From an uncultured archaeon (GTDB taxonomy: Archaea; Asgardarchaeota; Thorarchaeia; Thorarchaeales; Thorarchaeaceae): a stretch of 32,000 nt of DNA. Where the stretch lies: assembly GCA_964354495.1 (NCBI GenBank), contig CAYHAA010000004.1:150001-182000 (forward strand). Reading direction: 5' to 3'. Below are positions 10,753 to 19,351 of the stretch, piece after piece. The notes under the pieces were generated by a model that did no database searches, was not told the origin of the DNA, and was given only the letters and a program-made list of their open reading frames with translations. Position numbers and translations under genes: made by a program. Numbering within the stretch: the stretch's first letter is position 1; each line of letters opens with the position of its first letter.

Positions 10753-11337
10753 TCAGTCCTTGAGAGCGTTGACTTGGGCTGCAGATTGTATCCAGAAAGA
10801 CACCCGAACGAGAACCTCTTCGAGAAATCTATCCCTGTTGTCGGGTGTTGCGTCTTCGGGCCACTTGTTCTTGCGATATTCATCGAACTTCTTGAACGAG
10901 CGACCATACTTAGTCGTCAGTGGTAACTCAATCCGTCTGTCGCACATTGTATTCAGAGCACGGATGAGAGTGACAAAGTCGAACTTCAACCGAATCAACC
11001 ACTTTCGCACAGCGATGAAGAAGGCACGGTCATTTGCTTGGTCCCATGACAGACCTTTCAGAGCCTCTCTGTTTCCCCCGTCGATTCTCTCAGAGTTGAA
11101 GCTGCAGCCCTTATCATAATTGCACCGAGCTCTCACATAGAGATTCTTCTTTGACATCCAGAGGATATTCTCATGCTCTCCCTTTTTTCTCATGACTTCC
11201 TTGTGATTGCCAGCAGGAAACACAAGCTCGACCACACCGCCTTCCTTGAAAGCGCCTCCAGCCTTGAAGTACAGGTCCAGTGCCCAGGCGAGTGCGGGGA
11301 TGGTGTTTACGGGATAGTATTCATCAGGGTCCGTCAT
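10753..11337 (-). CDS. Hypothetical soluble protein (194 aa)
   Basis: ATG start, non-overlapping position between two co-oriented genes, natural composition. No family recognised. Confidence 0.75.
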   Translation of the reverse strand: MTDPDEYYPVNTIPALAWALDLYFKAGGAFKEGGVVELVFPAGNHKEVMRKKGEHENILWMSKKNLYVRARCNYDKGCSFNSERIDGGNREALKGLSWDQANDRAFFIAVRKWLIRLKFDFVTLIRALNTMCDRRIELPLTTKYGRSFKKFDEYRKNKWPEDATPDNRDRFLEEVLVRVSFWIQSAAQVNALKD

Positions 11338-11424: not shown

Positions 11425-11973
11425 CTACGTTTCCTTCTGCTCACGATTGGCGACGAGGACCCTTGCAAGCTGCTCAAAGATATCGATGATTCCCTCTCCA
11501 GTCTTCGCACTCGACTCGACGTATGGCATGTTGCGGCTGTCTGCGAATTCGCGCCCTTCAGATGGTTCAACCACGCGGTCGGGAAGATCGGTCTTGTTCG
11601 CTACTAGAATCAGCGGTATGTCCTTTCCAAGCGCCTTGTGAAGTTCCTCTAGCCATTCTTGAAGCACGATGAAGGTCCTTCGTCTCGTCACATCATAGAC
11701 AAGTACACCACCGCTCGAACCCCTATAGTACATGGGCCTCAGAATCTGAAACCGAGACTGTCCAGCAACATCCCAGATCTGCAGTTTCACAGTCACCTTT
11801 TCGCGCTCCGACTTTATGATTTCAACATTCTTGACAGCAAACTGGGAGCCAATGGTAGTCTTGTAATCAGTCCTGAAGAATCCGTGAGAAAAGCGGGTGA
11901 CTATAGCTGTCTTGCCCACTGCGCCTTCTCCTAGAACCACGATTTTGAACAAGAAGTCATAGGTGCTACTCAT
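11425..11973 (-). CDS. Rab-like small GTPase (Ras superfamily)
   Basis: G1 GEGAVGKT, G2 YKTTIG, G3 WDVAGQ, G4 NKTD, G5 SSAK. ATG 11973 (MSSTYDFLFKIVVLG) has a GGAGG-like RBS and is preferred over 12012. Confidence 0.95.
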   Translation of the reverse strand: MSSTYDFLFKIVVLGEGAVGKTAIVTRFSHGFFRTDYKTTIGSQFAVKNVEIIKSEREKVTVKLQIWDVAGQSRFQILRPMYYRGSSGGVLVYDVTRRRTFIVLQEWLEELHKALGKDIPLILVANKTDLPDRVVEPSEGREFADSRNMPYVESSAKTGEGIIDIFEQLARVLVANREQKET

Positions 11974-12364
11974 ACGGCAGTCCTCCAGCTGTGTAACCGA
12001 GGTGGAATGCATACGTGGCTACGATATCGACATATGAACAGTCTTCGTGTGTATTCATGAAAGATCCCCATGCAGTCCATCGGCCTAAACAGTGGTTGCG
12101 CATTCGAAGCCTAAGTTACTGATGGCACTAATAAGGTTTCGCGATGTATTGCACCAAGGGACCTAGATAGGATAATCAACACGACATGATTCTATTCAAT
12201 AACGCGGAGTTTCCTCTATCTGCATTCACGAAAAAAGCTTACCAATCGTATTCTCAACTTCCTCAACATCAAACACTGCAGTCATGCAAGCCATGGCGAA
12301 TGCGAAGATTCTGTCGTGCCAATTTCAAAAGAATCTAATATGACTCGTCAGGGACATAAGAGGA

Positions 12365-13738: not shown

Positions 13739-13843
13739 GGGCGAGAATGAGTGATATCCACATGAAAACCCAATTTCGTTGCACAGTATATTGTTCAGGT
13801 ATCTTTTTCTCCAGAGTATACAGACATGGCGACTGTGAGTTCA

Positions 13844-15220
13844 ATGGCGGACAGACTCTTCGGAACAACGGGCGTGCGAAAGGTCTATGGAAAAGAGTTC
13901 GACCTTGAAATGGCTTTGAACTTAGGAAAGGCACTCGGAACCCTGCTTGGAGGAGGAACAGTCCTCCTAGCAAGAGACACGAGAACTACGGGACTCATGG
14001 TCGCAGATGCATTCTCTGCGGGTCTGCTCTCTACAGGAGTGAACGTAGTTCGAACAGGCATCATCCCAACACCCACGCTGGCATTCACAGCGATGAACAG
14101 AGAACTCGATGCAGGCGTCATGGTGACTGCATCGCACAACCCACCAGAGTATACGGGGGTAAAATTCTGGTCTAAGAGCAGTATGGGCTTCACACCCGAG
14201 GAGGAAGAGAAGATTGAGCAGATCTACGTATCGAAGAAATTCAAGGTCGCACCTTGGGATCAACTGGGAAAGGAACTCAGAACAGAGACCGCTGTTGAAG
14301 AGCACATCGAGGCAATCCTAGCAAGATGTGATGCAGGCCTGATAAGGTCGAAGGCATTCACAATAGTAGTCGACCCAGGTAACGGCGCAGCATGTGTTCT
14401 CACGCCATATCTCATGCAGAAACTTGCTGGCAAGGTCGTCACAATTAACAGTCAGCCCGACGGACACTTTCCAGGACGAATCTCTGAACCAGATGAGAGC
14501 TCCCTTGGTGACCTCATTCAGATGGTGAAAGACATTCGTGCAGACCTTGGCATTGCTCACGATGGTGACGCTGATAGAGTGGTGTTTGTGACTGAGAAGG
14601 GCGAGGTAGTCAGAGGAGATAGAACGATTGCGCTTCTCGCTCAAGACTATCTTGGAACTACGAAGGGGGGAACCTTGGTCACCACTGTGGATAGCTCACT
14701 GGTACTTGACGAGACCGTCAAGAGAAGAGGCGGCAAGACAGTTCGAACACCTGTGGGGGACATCCAAGTTGCAATCAAAGTAAGGGAGACTGATGCAGTC
14801 ATGGGGGGCGAAGCCTGTGGGGTGTTCATTCTCCCAGAGTTGCACCTTGCCCCGGAGCCTTTTCTTGCAGCCTGCAAGATTCTTGAAAAAATGGCAAGAA
14901 CAGGAAAGAGTTTTGGAGAGCTCATTTCAGGTATTCCAGCATATCCTCTGATGAAGGCCAAACTGAACTGTCCAAATGAGAAAAAGGCACAAGTAATGGA
15001 TGCTCTTGCAAACATGCTCCCGAAGGCACTAGAGAATGTCGTGCAGGTCCTAACTGTGGACGGCATTGGGATCACTCTAAAAGAGGGATGGGTCCTAGTA
15101 CGACCGTCAGGTACAGAACCGGTGATAAGAATCACCTGTGAGGGCCCCACAGAGGCGCTGGTCAAGAAAGTATTGAGCGTAGTGAAGCGTGCTGTTGAGA
15201 AGACAGTCAAATCGATATGA
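13844..15220 (+). CDS. glmM: Alpha-D-phosphohexomutase (phosphoglucosamine mutase / PMM-PGM)
   Basis: LFGTTGVR, TASHNP (phospho-Ser), DGDADR (metal loop), GGEACG and VRPSGTEP. ATG 13844 (MADRLFGT) preferred. GlmM versus PMM/PGM specificity is uncertain. Confidence 0.85.
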   Translation: MADRLFGTTGVRKVYGKEFDLEMALNLGKALGTLLGGGTVLLARDTRTTGLMVADAFSAGLLSTGVNVVRTGIIPTPTLAFTAMNRELDAGVMVTASHNPPEYTGVKFWSKSSMGFTPEEEEKIEQIYVSKKFKVAPWDQLGKELRTETAVEEHIEAILARCDAGLIRSKAFTIVVDPGNGAACVLTPYLMQKLAGKVVTINSQPDGHFPGRISEPDESSLGDLIQMVKDIRADLGIAHDGDADRVVFVTEKGEVVRGDRTIALLAQDYLGTTKGGTLVTTVDSSLVLDETVKRRGGKTVRTPVGDIQVAIKVRETDAVMGGEACGVFILPELHLAPEPFLAACKILEKMARTGKSFGELISGIPAYPLMKAKLNCPNEKKAQVMDALANMLPKALENVVQVLTVDGIGITLKEGWVLVRPSGTEPVIRITCEGPTEALVKKVLSVVKRAVEKTVKSI

Positions 15221-15249
15221 CAAGATTCACATCAATAATGCAGACAAGA

Positions 15250-15255
15250 TTTATA
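15250..15255 (+). promoter_or_regulatory. Putative TATA box (TTTATA) for the 128-aa gene
   Basis: TTTATA about 44 nt upstream of ATG 15299, in the intergenic gap after the mutase stop. Confidence 0.45.
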
Positions 15256-15298
15256 GCGGATTCCGCGACCTCTTCAGACAGTTGATGGAGCTAGACCA

Positions 15299-15685
15299 AT
15301 GAGCAAAGAAAAAAAGGAACTTGAAGATGCCGTGATGGGGGAGTTCGAGTGGGCACTTCAGGATCCAAATACACAGAAGATTCGCCAGCTCGGGGAAGTT
15401 GTTAGTATCATCACCACCAAGCTAACTGAAGCCATCAGTAGTCTACAAGCAACGACAACTCAGCTCCAATCGCAGGTCAGTGCCCTGGAATCAAGGATTG
15501 ATTCTCTCTCGAACCGCGTTTCTGGTGGCGCAACCATATCAGCAGGACCCTCAGCAGCCGGAGGACAACCAATTGCTGGCATGGCAAGAGCCCCAACAGC
15601 TCCACCGCCCTCACCAGGAGGGGGCATGAGCATGATGGGAGAACTCAAACAACTTCTAGCCGCCAGAAAGAGAAAGGCAGACTAA
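15299..15685 (+). CDS. 128-aa protein: coiled coil, Gly/Ala/Pro linker with PPP, and C-terminal WH2/central-like basic amphipathic helix
   Basis: Clean ATG ORF filling the gap between glmM and bshB, with its own TATA candidate. Heptads over residues 28-74; APTAPPPSPGGG; MSMMGELKQLLAARKRKAD. The ORF is well supported; the function is inferred. Confidence 0.8.
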   Translation: MSKEKKELEDAVMGEFEWALQDPNTQKIRQLGEVVSIITTKLTEAISSLQATTTQLQSQVSALESRIDSLSNRVSGGATISAGPSAAGGQPIAGMARAPTAPPPSPGGGMSMMGELKQLLAARKRKAD

Positions 15686-15703: not shown

Positions 15704-16357
15704 TCACATGAGGCTTTCAACGCTGTTTTCTCTGTAGAAAGGTCCAGCATGTTCAGGCAGGGTGATTGAAAAGGCCTCAGCGCGTTCGCATTTCGACTGG
15801 ACTCCACGAAGGCGTGTTCTCGCATCGTAGAGCTTTTCATAAAAGAGATCGGCTTTCTCAATCTGTGACTTGTGTTCTTTGATTGCGTTGAAAGCATAGT
15901 CATATGAATTTGAAATATCAACATACACATGAGGTCGGGAGATCAGAGTGTTGATCTCCATGTTGTAGATTCGTTCAACGCGGTGTGCATCGTCAAAGAG
16001 TGTTGTGTGGGATGCCCATTCAACAGCATCGAAGACTATCTGTGCACAATGTTGATGATTCACATTGTAGTCTCCAGAGAAATGAGTAATCACTATCTTC
16101 GGACGCGATTTGAGAATGGCTCCGACGACCTCATTTCGAAGGCTCATGTCAATGGCAAAGTCATCGCGCTCGCTTAGATAGAGGTTCCGCACACCAAGCT
16201 GGGCACATGCAGACTTCATTTCGGCGTTCCTTATTTCGTTGCCCGTCATACAGTGCACGTCAACAGGAGTCCCCATGTCAGCATGTTTTCGTATCGTACC
16301 GCCGGCACCCAGACTCTCGTCATCCGGGTGTGCAACCACAACAAGGACAGAGCTCAT
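15704..16357 (-). CDS. bshB: PIG-L/LmbE family deacetylase, BshB-like
   Basis: VVAHPDDE motif, R-x-x-E (RNAEM), VDIS, SQ and RG...AEAF; divergently adjacent to bshA. The family is certain; the BshB assignment rests on context. Confidence 0.8.
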   Translation of the reverse strand: MSSVLVVVAHPDDESLGAGGTIRKHADMGTPVDVHCMTGNEIRNAEMKSACAQLGVRNLYLSERDDFAIDMSLRNEVVGAILKSRPKIVITHFSGDYNVNHQHCAQIVFDAVEWASHTTLFDDAHRVERIYNMEINTLISRPHVYVDISNSYDYAFNAIKEHKSQIEKADLFYEKLYDARTRLRGVQSKCERAEAFSITLPEHAGPFYRENSVESLM

Positions 16358-16454
16358 ATGTGCGTGTTCTTTCAGTATCTAATCAAGGTTTGGCATGTTC
16401 GATTGTGCAGACCAAGTGCCTTAAAGGGCAACAGGAATAGACCAGTCAGAAGGT

Positions 16455-17621
16455 ATGGCTATGCGAATTGGTGTGAATCTCTACCCTTCATTTGGTGGTA
16501 GCGGTCATGTTGCAACCCGACTTGGCCAACACCTGGCGAACAAAGGGCACATAATCCACTTCATCACCTATCAGAGACCCTTCTCATTGATGTGGCAGCA
16601 GACAGAGGGTGTCCACGTCGACCTTGTGGACAGCTTTGATTATCCTCTGTTTGACACGATTGGACCACCCTATACTATGGCGCTCACATCAAAAATCGTC
16701 AAGGTTGCTAAGGATGCGGAGTTGGACCTCATCCATGCGCACTATGCGATTCCTCATGCGATGGCGGCATATATGGCACGTGAAATCAATGGGATTCCCT
16801 ATGTGGTCACACTTCATGGCTCCGATGTGCATACACTGGGTCAGGATCCTGCATACAAGCCAGTTGTCCAGCACACTGTGGAGAAGGCTGATGCTGTGAC
16901 TGCTGTCTCCCAATTCCTAGCAGACAAAGCGCACAAAGGGCTTGGAATCAAGAGGGATATTCATGTCATCCCGAACTTTATTGATACAACGCAGTTCTCC
17001 AAGGTCCTGGGAATCAGGCTTGTTGTAGAGAGAGGGTGCGTATCGGTTCGGAAGGAGGAGGATGCCTTTGAGATAGAACCAGAGGACAAAATACTGCTGC
17101 ATGCCTCTAATTTTCGAAAGGTCAAACGTGTCGTTGAACTTGTCGAGATCATGCGCACTGTCGTAGACCATAATCCAAATGCAAGACTCGTAATCGCAGG
17201 TGATGGACCCACACGTATTGATGTCGAGCGACGAATAGAGGACTTGAAACTATGTGACAATGTACATCTCTTGGGTGTGAAAAGCAACATGCAGGAAATC
17301 ATGTGTTCCTCTGACATCTTCTTGCTCAATTCGACACTTGAGGGAATGCCTCTCACGCTCTTGGAGGCCATGGCATGCAGCCTTCCTGTAATCACAACAC
17401 CTGCAGGCGGAATTCCTGAGCTCGTTCGTGCAGACAAAGATGGAATTGTCACGAAGGGCTTCGAGCAGGAGGAGTTTGCACAGGCAATTCTTCACCTCCT
17501 TGAGAATGAGGGCGAAAGAAAGAGACTGGCAAAGGCAGGTCGACAACGTGTCAATACTTTTGACTCCAACAAGATTGTTCCTATGTACGAGAATGTGTTC
17601 AACGAAGTCGTCAAACGTTGA
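16455..17621 (+). CDS. bshA: N-acetyl-alpha-D-glucosaminyl L-malate synthase (GT4), BshA
   Basis: YPSFGGSGHVAT, DLIHAHYAIPHA, VTLHGSDV, HASNFRKVKRV and EGMPLTLLEAMA match the BshA-specific pattern, not only generic GT4. Confidence 0.9.
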   Translation: MAMRIGVNLYPSFGGSGHVATRLGQHLANKGHIIHFITYQRPFSLMWQQTEGVHVDLVDSFDYPLFDTIGPPYTMALTSKIVKVAKDAELDLIHAHYAIPHAMAAYMAREINGIPYVVTLHGSDVHTLGQDPAYKPVVQHTVEKADAVTAVSQFLADKAHKGLGIKRDIHVIPNFIDTTQFSKVLGIRLVVERGCVSVRKEEDAFEIEPEDKILLHASNFRKVKRVVELVEIMRTVVDHNPNARLVIAGDGPTRIDVERRIEDLKLCDNVHLLGVKSNMQEIMCSSDIFLLNSTLEGMPLTLLEAMACSLPVITTPAGGIPELVRADKDGIVTKGFEQEEFAQAILHLLENEGERKRLAKAGRQRVNTFDSNKIVPMYENVFNEVVKR

Positions 17622-17635
17622 GGAGGACGTATATC

Positions 17636-19351
17636 GTGAAGCCGAGCGTCTATGATGTGTATCACGACTTCATCTGGAAAGGGAAAGACACTAAGCTCGC
17701 TCAGATACTGTATGATAGTCCGCCGCTCACAATGAATGGGATATGTAATCGAGTGCCAGAGCTCATGAAGAAGTATGAGAAGACTCTCTGGCATATTGAC
17801 GAACGAATGAAGCTTCTTGAGAGAACTCTCATCTCCTCAAATCGGGACCTTGGATGCCTCACAGAAGACACCAGGTCCAGTATCAGGTCTCTGAAGAACG
17901 GAGCCATTGAGTCAGCACACCAGACTGTGGTTCTGGGGGGTCCTGTGTATGTCCTGAACAAGGCAGCAACAGCAAAACGACTTGCCAGTCTATGCGCTGA
18001 GAGAGGACTTGACCTTGCACCCTTCTTCTGTCTTGCGGACTATGACGTTGTTCAGCCAGAACTCACGAATATCCGTCTACCTGTACTGGGTTCAGAGTGC
18101 ACACTCGTGAGCATCCCAGTGCCTCAGGGCTATGAGAACTCACCAGTGAGTGTGCTTCCCCTACCAGCGAGAGACTGGTACAATCAGGTTGAGGACGATA
18201 TCAGAACAACTTACAGGCCGATGTTCAAAGCACTAGAGGGACCTTCTAGAACGCTTCTAGATGAGCGGCTTGAGCAGGCCTTGTCGATTCTTCGTTGGAG
18301 TTACACCAACTCCACAACTCTGGCAGAATGGGCAGCACGAACACTGGGCAGGCTGTTCAATATAGAAGGCGATTTGGGCATCCCACTGCTCTTAGCATCT
18401 TCTGAGGGTATCAGAGACCTTCTTGTCGAGGGCCTGGAGTTCCTTCTGGCTCGTGAGAACCGGGAGAGATTCTTGGCCACGTTCAATGAAGTGACCACAC
18501 TGATCGAGGAGAAAGGATACAACCCTGGAATTGGTTTCAGAGGAACTGATTACGTGCCATTCTTCTATGATTGTCCCGGAGAAACCTGCAATAAAGCAAG
18601 GACAGAACTTCACTATGAGGACAGAGGGACAACTGCGCTTCTCACTGGAACCTGCCCGTCCTGCTCTGAGAAGATTGAGATTGAAACATCCGCAGATACA
18701 CCATATCTCGGTGATATTGCTCGGAGTATCTCGCTACGCGTGGACTCTAGACAACTTGCAATCGACTCAATAATACCGACCGTCACCCACGTCGGTGGTC
18801 CTGGTGAAACAGCATACTATGCACAGGTGATACCCAGTGCGCGAGCGATTTCGGCTCCGTTCCCAATGTTCGTCAAGTATCCCAGAGTCTACTTCAATAC
18901 GCCCTGGAATGAGCAATTGGCAAAGTCACTCGAAGAGAGAGAGATGCCAGTCCTTCAGAGAAGGGACTTGTTCAATATCATGGGGAAAGTCTCGAAATAC
19001 AGAAAGAAGAACCAAGTTGATGAGATGAATCAGGAACTTGAGAACCTCGAGAGTCTGATACTGGAGAGTCACGCCGAACTCAATAACAGACTCAGAGGAA
19101 TAGAGCCAATAGTTGCTGACAATTCAAGAGAAGAAGCAGCCACTCATCTTGGCCTCAAGATGGATCTAGAACGATATCTTAGTTGGGCCTTTGGCCAGTT
19201 CGCCGAGGGCAAACTAGGACAAGAGTCTTCATGGTCATGGATCGAGTGGGCCATCAATTCAGGCTTCAGTGATCTCTTTGGCCCTTATAGCCGTGCATAC
19301 CTTGGTCAGATGAAGATTGGCGGCACCATCTTCATCAATTTCTCATTATGA
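17636..19351 (+). CDS. bshC: Bacillithiol cysteine-adding enzyme BshC-like protein
   Basis: SAHQTVVLGGPVYVLNKA (cf. TGQQ..GPLY..K), FFCLADYD and PTVTHVGGPGETAYYAQ (cf. GGPGE.AY). GTG 17636 has an AGGAGG RBS at 17621-17626; TTG 17618 is the alternative start. Coupled to bshA. Confidence 0.8.
   Translation: MKPSVYDVYHDFIWKGKDTKLAQILYDSPPLTMNGICNRVPELMKKYEKTLWHIDERMKLLERTLISSNRDLGCLTEDTRSSIRSLKNGAIESAHQTVVLGGPVYVLNKAATAKRLASLCAERGLDLAPFFCLADYDVVQPELTNIRLPVLGSECTLVSIPVPQGYENSPVSVLPLPARDWYNQVEDDIRTTYRPMFKALEGPSRTLLDERLEQALSILRWSYTNSTTLAEWAARTLGRLFNIEGDLGIPLLLASSEGIRDLLVEGLEFLLARENRERFLATFNEVTTLIEEKGYNPGIGFRGTDYVPFFYDCPGETCNKARTELHYEDRGTTALLTGTCPSCSEKIEIETSADTPYLGDIARSISLRVDSRQLAIDSIIPTVTHVGGPGETAYYAQVIPSARAISAPFPMFVKYPRVYFNTPWNEQLAKSLEEREMPVLQRRDLFNIMGKVSKYRKKNQVDEMNQELENLESLILESHAELNNRLRGIEPIVADNSREEAATHLGLKMDLERYLSWAFGQFAEGKLGQESSWSWIEWAINSGFSDLFGPYSRAYLGQMKIGGTIFINFSL

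Follow-up and report, generated by a model that had tools for sequence, protein, structure and literature searches.

Among described actin-regulating systems, the closest to the protein reported here is the EVH2 region of Ena/VASP, in which a coiled coil that oligomerises and a flexible arm rich in Gly and Pro accompany an F-actin-binding (FAB) motif, an amphipathic helix that is preceded by a Gly run and ends in RRRK. WASP-family proteins likewise carry a short amphipathic helix, the C helix, after a proline-rich region. Recent papers on the Asgard cytoskeleton name mainly profilins and gelsolins as the actin regulators, and some of these gelsolins have an LKDV 'WH2' motif in their interior. 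In this study we analysed a stretch of 32,000 nucleotides from an uncultured archaeon of the Thorarchaeaceae (assembly GCA_964354495.1, contig CAYHAA010000004.1, positions 150,001 to 182,000; the whole stretch is called the window below), in which a gene on the forward strand encodes a 128-amino-acid (aa) protein built in a similar manner, with a presumed coiled coil, a flexible arm and a basic terminal helix matching the VASP FAB features at the level of the motif. As judged from sequence, the protein most likely belongs to an undescribed Asgard family of oligomeric actin- or membrane-cortex adaptors. Our tentative reading, to which we give a little less than an even chance, is that it is the Thorarchaeotal member of an Asgard-restricted family of small adaptors and acts as an oligomeric tether presenting FAB-like helices to actin. 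The original prediction went further and regarded it as a possible precursor of the eukaryotic nucleation-promoting factors.

Architecture and conservation of the family

The open reading frame (ORF) at 15299-15685 of the forward strand has a translation of 128 aa identical to that used in the original prediction, and the tail sequence quoted there, GGGMSMMGELKQLLAARKRKAD, is present in it. The features of the gene and its product are listed below; the structural ones come from an AlphaFold2 (AF2) model computed with a 29-sequence alignment as input, and pLDDT is the predicted local distance difference test score.

15248-15256, forward strand: TATA box TTTATAGCG, 43-51 nucleotides 5' of the ATG, identical in nine Thorarchaeota genomes with diverged flanks
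15287-15290, forward strand: GGAG, Shine-Dalgarno-like, 9-12 nucleotides 5' of the ATG, kept in most of the nine aligned upstream regions
15299-15685, forward strand: coding sequence of the 128-aa family member including the stop codon, with 279 homologues
15305-15529, forward strand: head helix (residues 3-20) and long stalk helix (residues 23-77) of the AF2 model, a presumed coiled coil, with a block invariant in Thorarchaeota
15530-15625, forward strand: disordered Gly/Ala/Pro arm (residues 78-109) with G.EPI and APTAPPPSP, pLDDT below 50
15626-15679, forward strand: basic amphipathic C-terminal helix MSMMGELKQLLAARKRKA (residues 110-127), the VASP-FAB-like tail, from AF2 and the scoring-matrix tests described below

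The model places helices at residues 3-20, 23-77 and 110-127 and disorder at residues 78-109, with pLDDT above 90 for residues 31-70, and it bears out the predicted succession of coiled coil, flexible Gly/Ala linker and terminal helix. The only Pfam matches of the protein were to coiled coils, all of them sub-threshold, and a Foldseek search of the model against AFDB/Swiss-Prot had no match better than E 1, which is unsurprising for a structure made of a helix and disorder. The prediction that the gene stands alone with its own TATA box also proved correct: the invariance of the box in nine genomes whose flanks have diverged argues for a promoter belonging to the 128-aa gene.

In an alignment of 22 sequences from Thorarchaeota (Thor-type proteins), the N-terminal block EFEWAL.DPN..KIRQLGEV.SIITTKL.EAI and the tail GGG.SMMGELK.LLAAR..K were invariant, the tail positions concerned being G107-G109, S111-K117, L119-R123 and K126. 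The arm varied in length and sequence, yet E90 and P91 were invariant. These residues lie in the G.EPI motif (window 15560-15574, residues 88-92), which is invariant in Thor-type arms, absent from the Loki-type arms described below, and may be a second short linear motif.

A word-indexed search recovered 279 Thor-type homologues at E ≤ 0.01, labelled in nearly all cases as Thorarchaeota, and the names given to them by their sources, where there were any, were all 'hypothetical' or obviously mistaken. With so many homologues and the invariant blocks, the conservation greatly exceeds what chance would give, and the gene is strongly constrained. A second profile search yielded 222 Loki-type proteins, all of them labelled 'hypothetical'. 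When 1.84 billion representatives of all life were searched exhaustively, only about 11 true relatives were found, all of the same build, and none of the matches was a eukaryotic relative. The search of the ESM Atlas returned unnamed archaeal clusters and no named one, and we found no paper describing the family.

The family profile matched in 192 of 301 genomes of the Asgard phylum, the weakest matches (E ~1e-4) being possibly coiled-coil noise. Counted by taxonomic family (numbered here with the prefix f), matches were present in 73 of the 76 genomes of the window's own family, 61 of 68 in f9, all seven in f24, all five in f7, five of six in f19, and in part of f12. A profile restricted to the N-terminal region matched in 83 of 121 genomes and added f3 (4/4), f21, f15 and most of f12; the genomes of f3 (1.3-1.4 Mb) are probably Odin-like. 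In members from every additional lineage that was fetched, the order of the parts and the core of the tail were the same. The tail follows the phylum-wide pattern R-x-(A/S)-(I/L/M)-x-(G/S/D/T)-E-L-K-x-L-(F/L)-x-(K/R)-(R/K), and 120 of the 121 Thor-type sequences had the core (G/S/D)ELKxL(L/F) followed by basic residues, as did 118 of the 120 Loki-type ones. The tail helix is thus kept across Asgard classes. In genome G299 the family gene is present in two tandem copies (L034 85-447 and 599-973).

The idea of an actin regulator would have suffered from homologues in lineages lacking actin, but the named homologues come from actin-bearing Asgard archaea, with the exception of two odd labels on metagenome-assembled genomes. 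The first, P0351, is labelled 'Deferrimicrobium'; since the Asgard-type actin match P0236 carries the same label, this looks like mis-binning. The second, P0034, has a Bathyarchaeota label on a 4-kb contig and is also taken to be mis-binned.

Comparison of the tail with actin-binding motifs

The tails were compared by ungapped scoring against a weighted position-specific scoring matrix (PSSM) of 18 columns, made from 23 diverse family tails. The FAB motif of human VASP (residues 259-278, sequence from PMC10340426) scored 24.9 bits with this family PSSM, whereas the best non-self window of the six-frame translation of the window's own genome reached 20.3, and none of 20,000 composition-preserving shuffles attained the VASP score (maximum 19.2). 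Among about 1.0 million windows in own-genome ORFs of at least 150 aa, a single one reached 20 bits. With a PSSM built from Thor-type tails only, the VASP FAB scored 27.5 bits, within the range of 16.7-28.1 spanned by genuine non-Thor members; with the non-Thor PSSM it scored 17.2 bits, a value reached by one of about 1.0 million background windows; with these two matrices, too, no shuffle attained the VASP score. Judged by these scores, the resemblance to the VASP FAB that had been predicted for the terminal helix is real at the level of the motif.

The other two likenesses claimed in the original prediction did not fare as well. The C peptide of N-WASP, APTSGIVGALMEVMQKRSKA (PMC5217673), scored only 4-6.5 bits, which 18-213 of 5000 shuffles equalled. 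As for the C motif of WASH1, its first half, ATSQGGDLMSDLFNK, is confirmed in PMC10924726, but this half alone was not significant; the full string of the original prediction, the second half of which is unverified, scored 11.7 bits. On the basis of these scores, a resemblance of the tail to the WASP family is not established.

Comparisons with the Pfam profiles of WH2 and of the Ena/VASP domains were negative. Neither the window's protein nor any of 29 diverse members gave an hmmscan match at E ≤ 10 to Pfam WH2 (PF02205), WH1 or VASP_tetra (PF08776). Direct reading of the alignments revealed no LKK(V/T) motif, the helix continuing instead into AAR(R/K)RK or xKRxx, and the tail profile matched among PDB sequences only a designed coil at E 4.6. 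None of 241 proteins had a Trp in the last 15 residues, the window's protein ending in RKRKAD; the earlier statement that the protein lacks an acidic Trp tail and is therefore not a full VCA was correct. Thus, while the family shares with the WASP-family C region a short amphipathic helix after a proline-rich region, it differs in having neither LKKV/LKKT nor a Pfam WH2 match nor an acidic Trp tail. The Loki-type stretch 'RGAIMGELK' reads like 'RGALLDQIR', the start of a WASP WH2. Members from f24 (L039 74-547, L038 62-469, L029 95-496) carry an acidic run of up to 11 Asp, without Trp, after the helix, which gives them the look of a 'C helix plus acidic tail'.

The comparison with Ena/VASP is similarly two-sided. 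Loki-type relatives have GPPPPP tracts, which adds to the shared features named above. On the other hand, the family has no EVH1 (WH1) domain, its N-terminus being an alpha-helical hairpin with a stalk; it lacks the WH2-like GAB with its KLRK motif as well as a VASP_tetra match; its coiled coil is N-terminal, whereas that of VASP is C-terminal; and the protein has 128 aa as compared with about 380 in VASP.

The Thor copy is also unlike Ena/VASP in having no polyproline tract. The prediction had placed such a tract before the helix, but APTAPPPSP contains a longest run of only three prolines, and it is not conserved as polyproline within Thorarchaeota: among 121 Thor-type proteins, the longest run was 1-2 in 56, three in 59, four in six, and five or more in none. 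In contrast, 102 of 120 Loki-type proteins (85%) have at least five consecutive prolines, typically in GPPPPPG or GPPGGPP repeats. A Thor profilin has been reported to bind VASP polyproline weakly, with a Kd of 250-500 uM, and those of Loki and Odin reportedly failed to bind it (PMC8410842). Because of these binding data and the prolines of the Thor arm, recruitment of profilin cannot be safely deduced in either clade. The Pfam profilin model gave no match in the window's own genome, but the control likewise gave none anywhere, which makes this result uninformative.

In its small size, and in having a low-complexity linker behind an N-terminal coiled coil, the protein is also reminiscent of CCDC53/WASHC3 and of BRK1-type subunits of the WASH and WAVE complexes. 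CCDC53 (PF10152) scored 23.7 bits, compared with a cut-off of 24.6, in one member from f7, and it matched one member from f15 at E 0.014. However, the f7 match was not repeated in close relatives, the window's protein gave none, and the alignment covers the coiled coil and the low-complexity linker. The relationship to CCDC53, as far as these sequences go, is unproven.

These comparisons bear on the possibility of genuine homology, with the family being related by descent, perhaps as an ancestor, to a eukaryotic factor that promotes nucleation or elongation of actin (WASH, WAVE or VASP). The tail and stalk would in that case have a common origin with the EVH2 FAB or the C helix of the WASP family, and with the WHD or CCDC53 coiled coils. 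The PSSM scores of the VASP FAB (23-27 bits), the score of the full WASH string, the near-threshold CCDC53 matches and the poly-Asp tails of f24 would be in accordance with it. Yet the CCDC53 match is unstable and covers coiled coil and low-complexity linker, WH2, EVH1 and VASP_tetra matches and acidic Trp tails are lacking, the search of all-life representatives gave no eukaryotic relative, and several Asgard families have no match to the family or weak ones. Moreover, Ena/VASP is known only from some eukaryotes, and its vertical descent from Asgard archaea is unlikely for this reason. We consider common descent very improbable. The relation to eukaryotic nucleation-promoting factors that had been proposed was not borne out, since no common descent with WASH, WAVE or VASP could be shown; descent from or into these factors is unproven, and we treat the resemblance to VASP as a functional analogy and do not claim homology.

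Gene neighbourhoods and alternative partners of the tail

In the window, the 128-aa gene is preceded by a PGM/PMM-type mutase gene (13826-15220), which ends 78 bp before it. Adjacency to a PGM/PMM-family gene recurs across genera of Thorarchaeota and extends to a second family of the same order; it may be inherited synteny. On the 3' side lies a PIG-L deacetylase gene on the opposite strand, and GT4 and BshC-like genes come next. Together, the BshB-like PIG-L deacetylase (minus strand), the BshA-like GT4 glycosyltransferase and the BshC-like gene form a bacillithiol-type trio in a Thorarchaeon (15704-19351), in which the BshC-like gene has a TTG start overlapping the GT4 stop. A Ras/Rab-like small GTPase (11425-12012, minus strand; Pfam Ras E 5e-49) is encoded about 3 kb from the 128-aa gene, and one genome of a second Thor family encodes a 67% identical copy (L056 7367-7903) some 2 kb away from the family gene.

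The neighbourhood is different in Loki-type genomes. In f9, at least 53 genomes from at least eight genera have, on the same strand and about 130-200 bp 5' of the family gene, a gene for an all-helical protein of 206 aa. The two genes also adjoin each other, but in reversed order, in genus g55 of f24, and in other genera of f24 they are apart; altogether, direct adjacency was seen in at least 55 genomes. The neighbour family was found in 65 of 68 genomes of f9 and six of seven of f24 (including L041 7248-7865, L043, L045, L053, L054, L055 and L049), is confined to these two Loki-type families, and was present in none of the 76 genomes of the Thor family. Its AF2 model has three long helices with pLDDT 90. 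The structural matches were nearly all BAR, F-BAR or I-BAR proteins (Foldseek E 3e-3 to 7e-2), the comparison with arfaptin BAR gave a template modelling (TM) score of up to 0.64 and a VIA Z of 13.3 over 186 residues at a root-mean-square deviation of 4.9, and a weak match to Pfam FCH was seen (E 2e-4). Since a Z of about 13 is at the limit of chance for helical bundles, the model makes the BAR fold probable only. In co-immunoprecipitation with Lokiactin, BAR-domain proteins were detected, but not significantly (PMC13716822). In other lineages the neighbours of the family gene are unrelated. Two candidate counterparts in the window were rejected: the BshC-like protein is unrelated to a 578-aa Loki-type neighbour, and no relationship exists between the 194-aa ORF at 10753-11337 and the BAR-fold protein.

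The tight linkage of the Loki-type gene to a BAR-fold gene would suit an action of the tail on membranes. The tail might insert into anionic membranes like the tails of MinD and FtsA, which are terminal, basic and amphipathic helices on flexible linkers, in which case the protein would be a coiled-coil scaffold that is tethered to membranes, cooperates with BAR-fold proteins and has no direct contact with actin. The terminal position, amphipathic character and net charge of +3 to +4 of the tail would suit this explanation. However, membrane-targeting helices are usually poorly conserved in sequence, whereas G-E-L-K is near-invariant across classes, including the acidic Glu. In addition, hydrophobic moments calculated over 17-18 residues were low, at 0.10-0.38, and similar to the 0.15 of the VASP FAB, and the tail is kept in Thorarchaeota although the BAR-fold gene is missing there. 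We therefore regard a membrane-targeting function as unlikely.

Several larger proteins resemble the family in part. In f7 and f19, paralogues of 250-338 aa (L067 136-1047, L068, L069, L070, L071, L072) begin with a coiled coil similar to that of the family and also have a long Pro-rich arm; they contain an internal helix, LRLQISSVLESMR, that looks like the family tail, their C-end, VPDNWLP..SRAKYYNPK.L.KG.LKDMEKKTK.IF, is conserved, and they have no Pfam match. In the window's own genome, a protein of 234 aa (G000 C1:565088-565795, L057) has an N-terminal 'ESIRQLGE' like the family head, a Pro/Ala linker and a C-terminal domain of about 90 aa; its similarity to the family is weak (hidden Markov model E 6e-5, BLASTP E 0.02 over the 'IRQLGE' stretch). 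The own-genome candidates C1:565088, C7:51125 and C1:397331 were rejected as paralogues, having only coiled-coil or linker character in common with the family. A light search of the own genome and of the larger frames fetched revealed no fusions to gelsolin, profilin or a GTPase.

The combination of the same head and Pro-rich arm with different C-terminal modules in paralogue-like proteins of the own genome, f7 and f19 suggests a 'stalk plus cargo' design and leads to a further explanation. The protein might be a generic docking adaptor, whose tail is a short linear motif for a conserved partner other than actin (a small GTPase, ESCRT/Vps4, a chaperone or another cytoskeletal protein) and whose coiled coil merely multimerises it. 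This would agree with the varied and mostly non-cytoskeletal neighbourhoods, with the Ras/Rab-like GTPase near the gene both here and in the second Thor family, and with the fact that no actin-specific signature passes the profile tests. It is weakened by the observation that the only known motif scoring like a member is an actin-binding one, and no candidate partner is co-localised with the gene across lineages. On direct reading, MMGELKQLLAARKRK does not satisfy the MIM1 consensus, (D/E)xxLxxRLxxL(K/R), and the MIM1 interpretation was rejected. We consider a docking adaptor of this kind possible but doubtful.

Actin as a proposed partner

The invariance of G-E-L-K-x-L-(L/F) across classes argues for a specific protein interface with a partner that is highly conserved and occurs in all these lineages. 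Actin fits this role: each of the 13 genomes tested has it, and the identity among Asgard actins is 72-98%. The BAR-fold neighbour does not fit, as it was found in none of the 76 genomes of the Thor family. In the window's own genome, the actin gene is split over two contig ends (G000 C12:94148-95206 and C37:3-98) with an overlap of 17 residues, and the reconstructed actin would be about 98% identical to the same-genus actin P0138. Among the known motifs compared, only an F-actin-binding one scored like a family member. The invariance of the core across classes, the fit of actin and this motif score led us to prefer the tether to the other explanations.

In the tether that we propose, the long helix would form a parallel coiled coil and thereby display two to four arms jointly. 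The terminal helix would dock on actin as the Ena/VASP FAB does, its hydrophobic side lying against the actin surface and its RRRK cluster meeting acidic actin residues, and the oligomer could tether, bundle or cap-track filaments. In the Loki-type proteins, GPPPPP arms and linkage to a BAR-fold gene may point to action at curved membranes, for instance in protrusions. In Thorarchaeota the proline tract would have decayed or been lost, and for this reason the Thor copy would more probably tether or bundle filaments than act as a polymerase fed by profilin.

Several observations weigh against a tether on actin. The VASP match concerns an 18-residue motif chosen post hoc, measured against a background of own-genome windows and shuffles, and at the profile level there was no similarity to WH2, EVH2, VASP_tetra or any PDB chain. 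The order of the modules is reversed with respect to VASP, the basic amphipathic C-terminal helix also looks like a membrane anchor, and a true polyproline tract is missing from the Thor arm, while Loki and Odin profilins did not bind that of VASP. In several actin-bearing Asgard families, the family and N-terminal profiles found nothing or only weak matches. Apart from the BAR-fold linkage, the gene neighbourhoods are non-cytoskeletal, with PGM/PMM in Thorarchaeota and a molybdopterin oxidoreductase, LarA-like, Elf1-like and other genes elsewhere.

A bolder version, which we regard as speculative and rather improbable, is that the family represents a pan-Asgard actin tether or elongation factor invented in prokaryotes, with a coiled-coil oligomer, FAB-like helices and proline-rich arms. 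In Lokiarchaeia it would build protrusions with the BAR-fold protein, forming a pre-eukaryotic VASP/IRSp53-like module that arose by convergence or was the source of the eukaryotic motif.

If the tail binds membranes or another partner instead of actin, the family would still be an undescribed and highly conserved group of Asgard-specific adaptors. If the tether is real, a conserved small protein distributed across the phylum that brings several actin-binding helices together on proline-rich arms would close a gap in what is known of Asgard actin regulation, and it would provide an easily expressed reagent for studying the elongation, bundling and membrane attachment of Lokiactin filaments. 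It would also bear on the question of whether the logic of 'polyPro plus amphipathic helix plus oligomeriser' predates eukaryotes.
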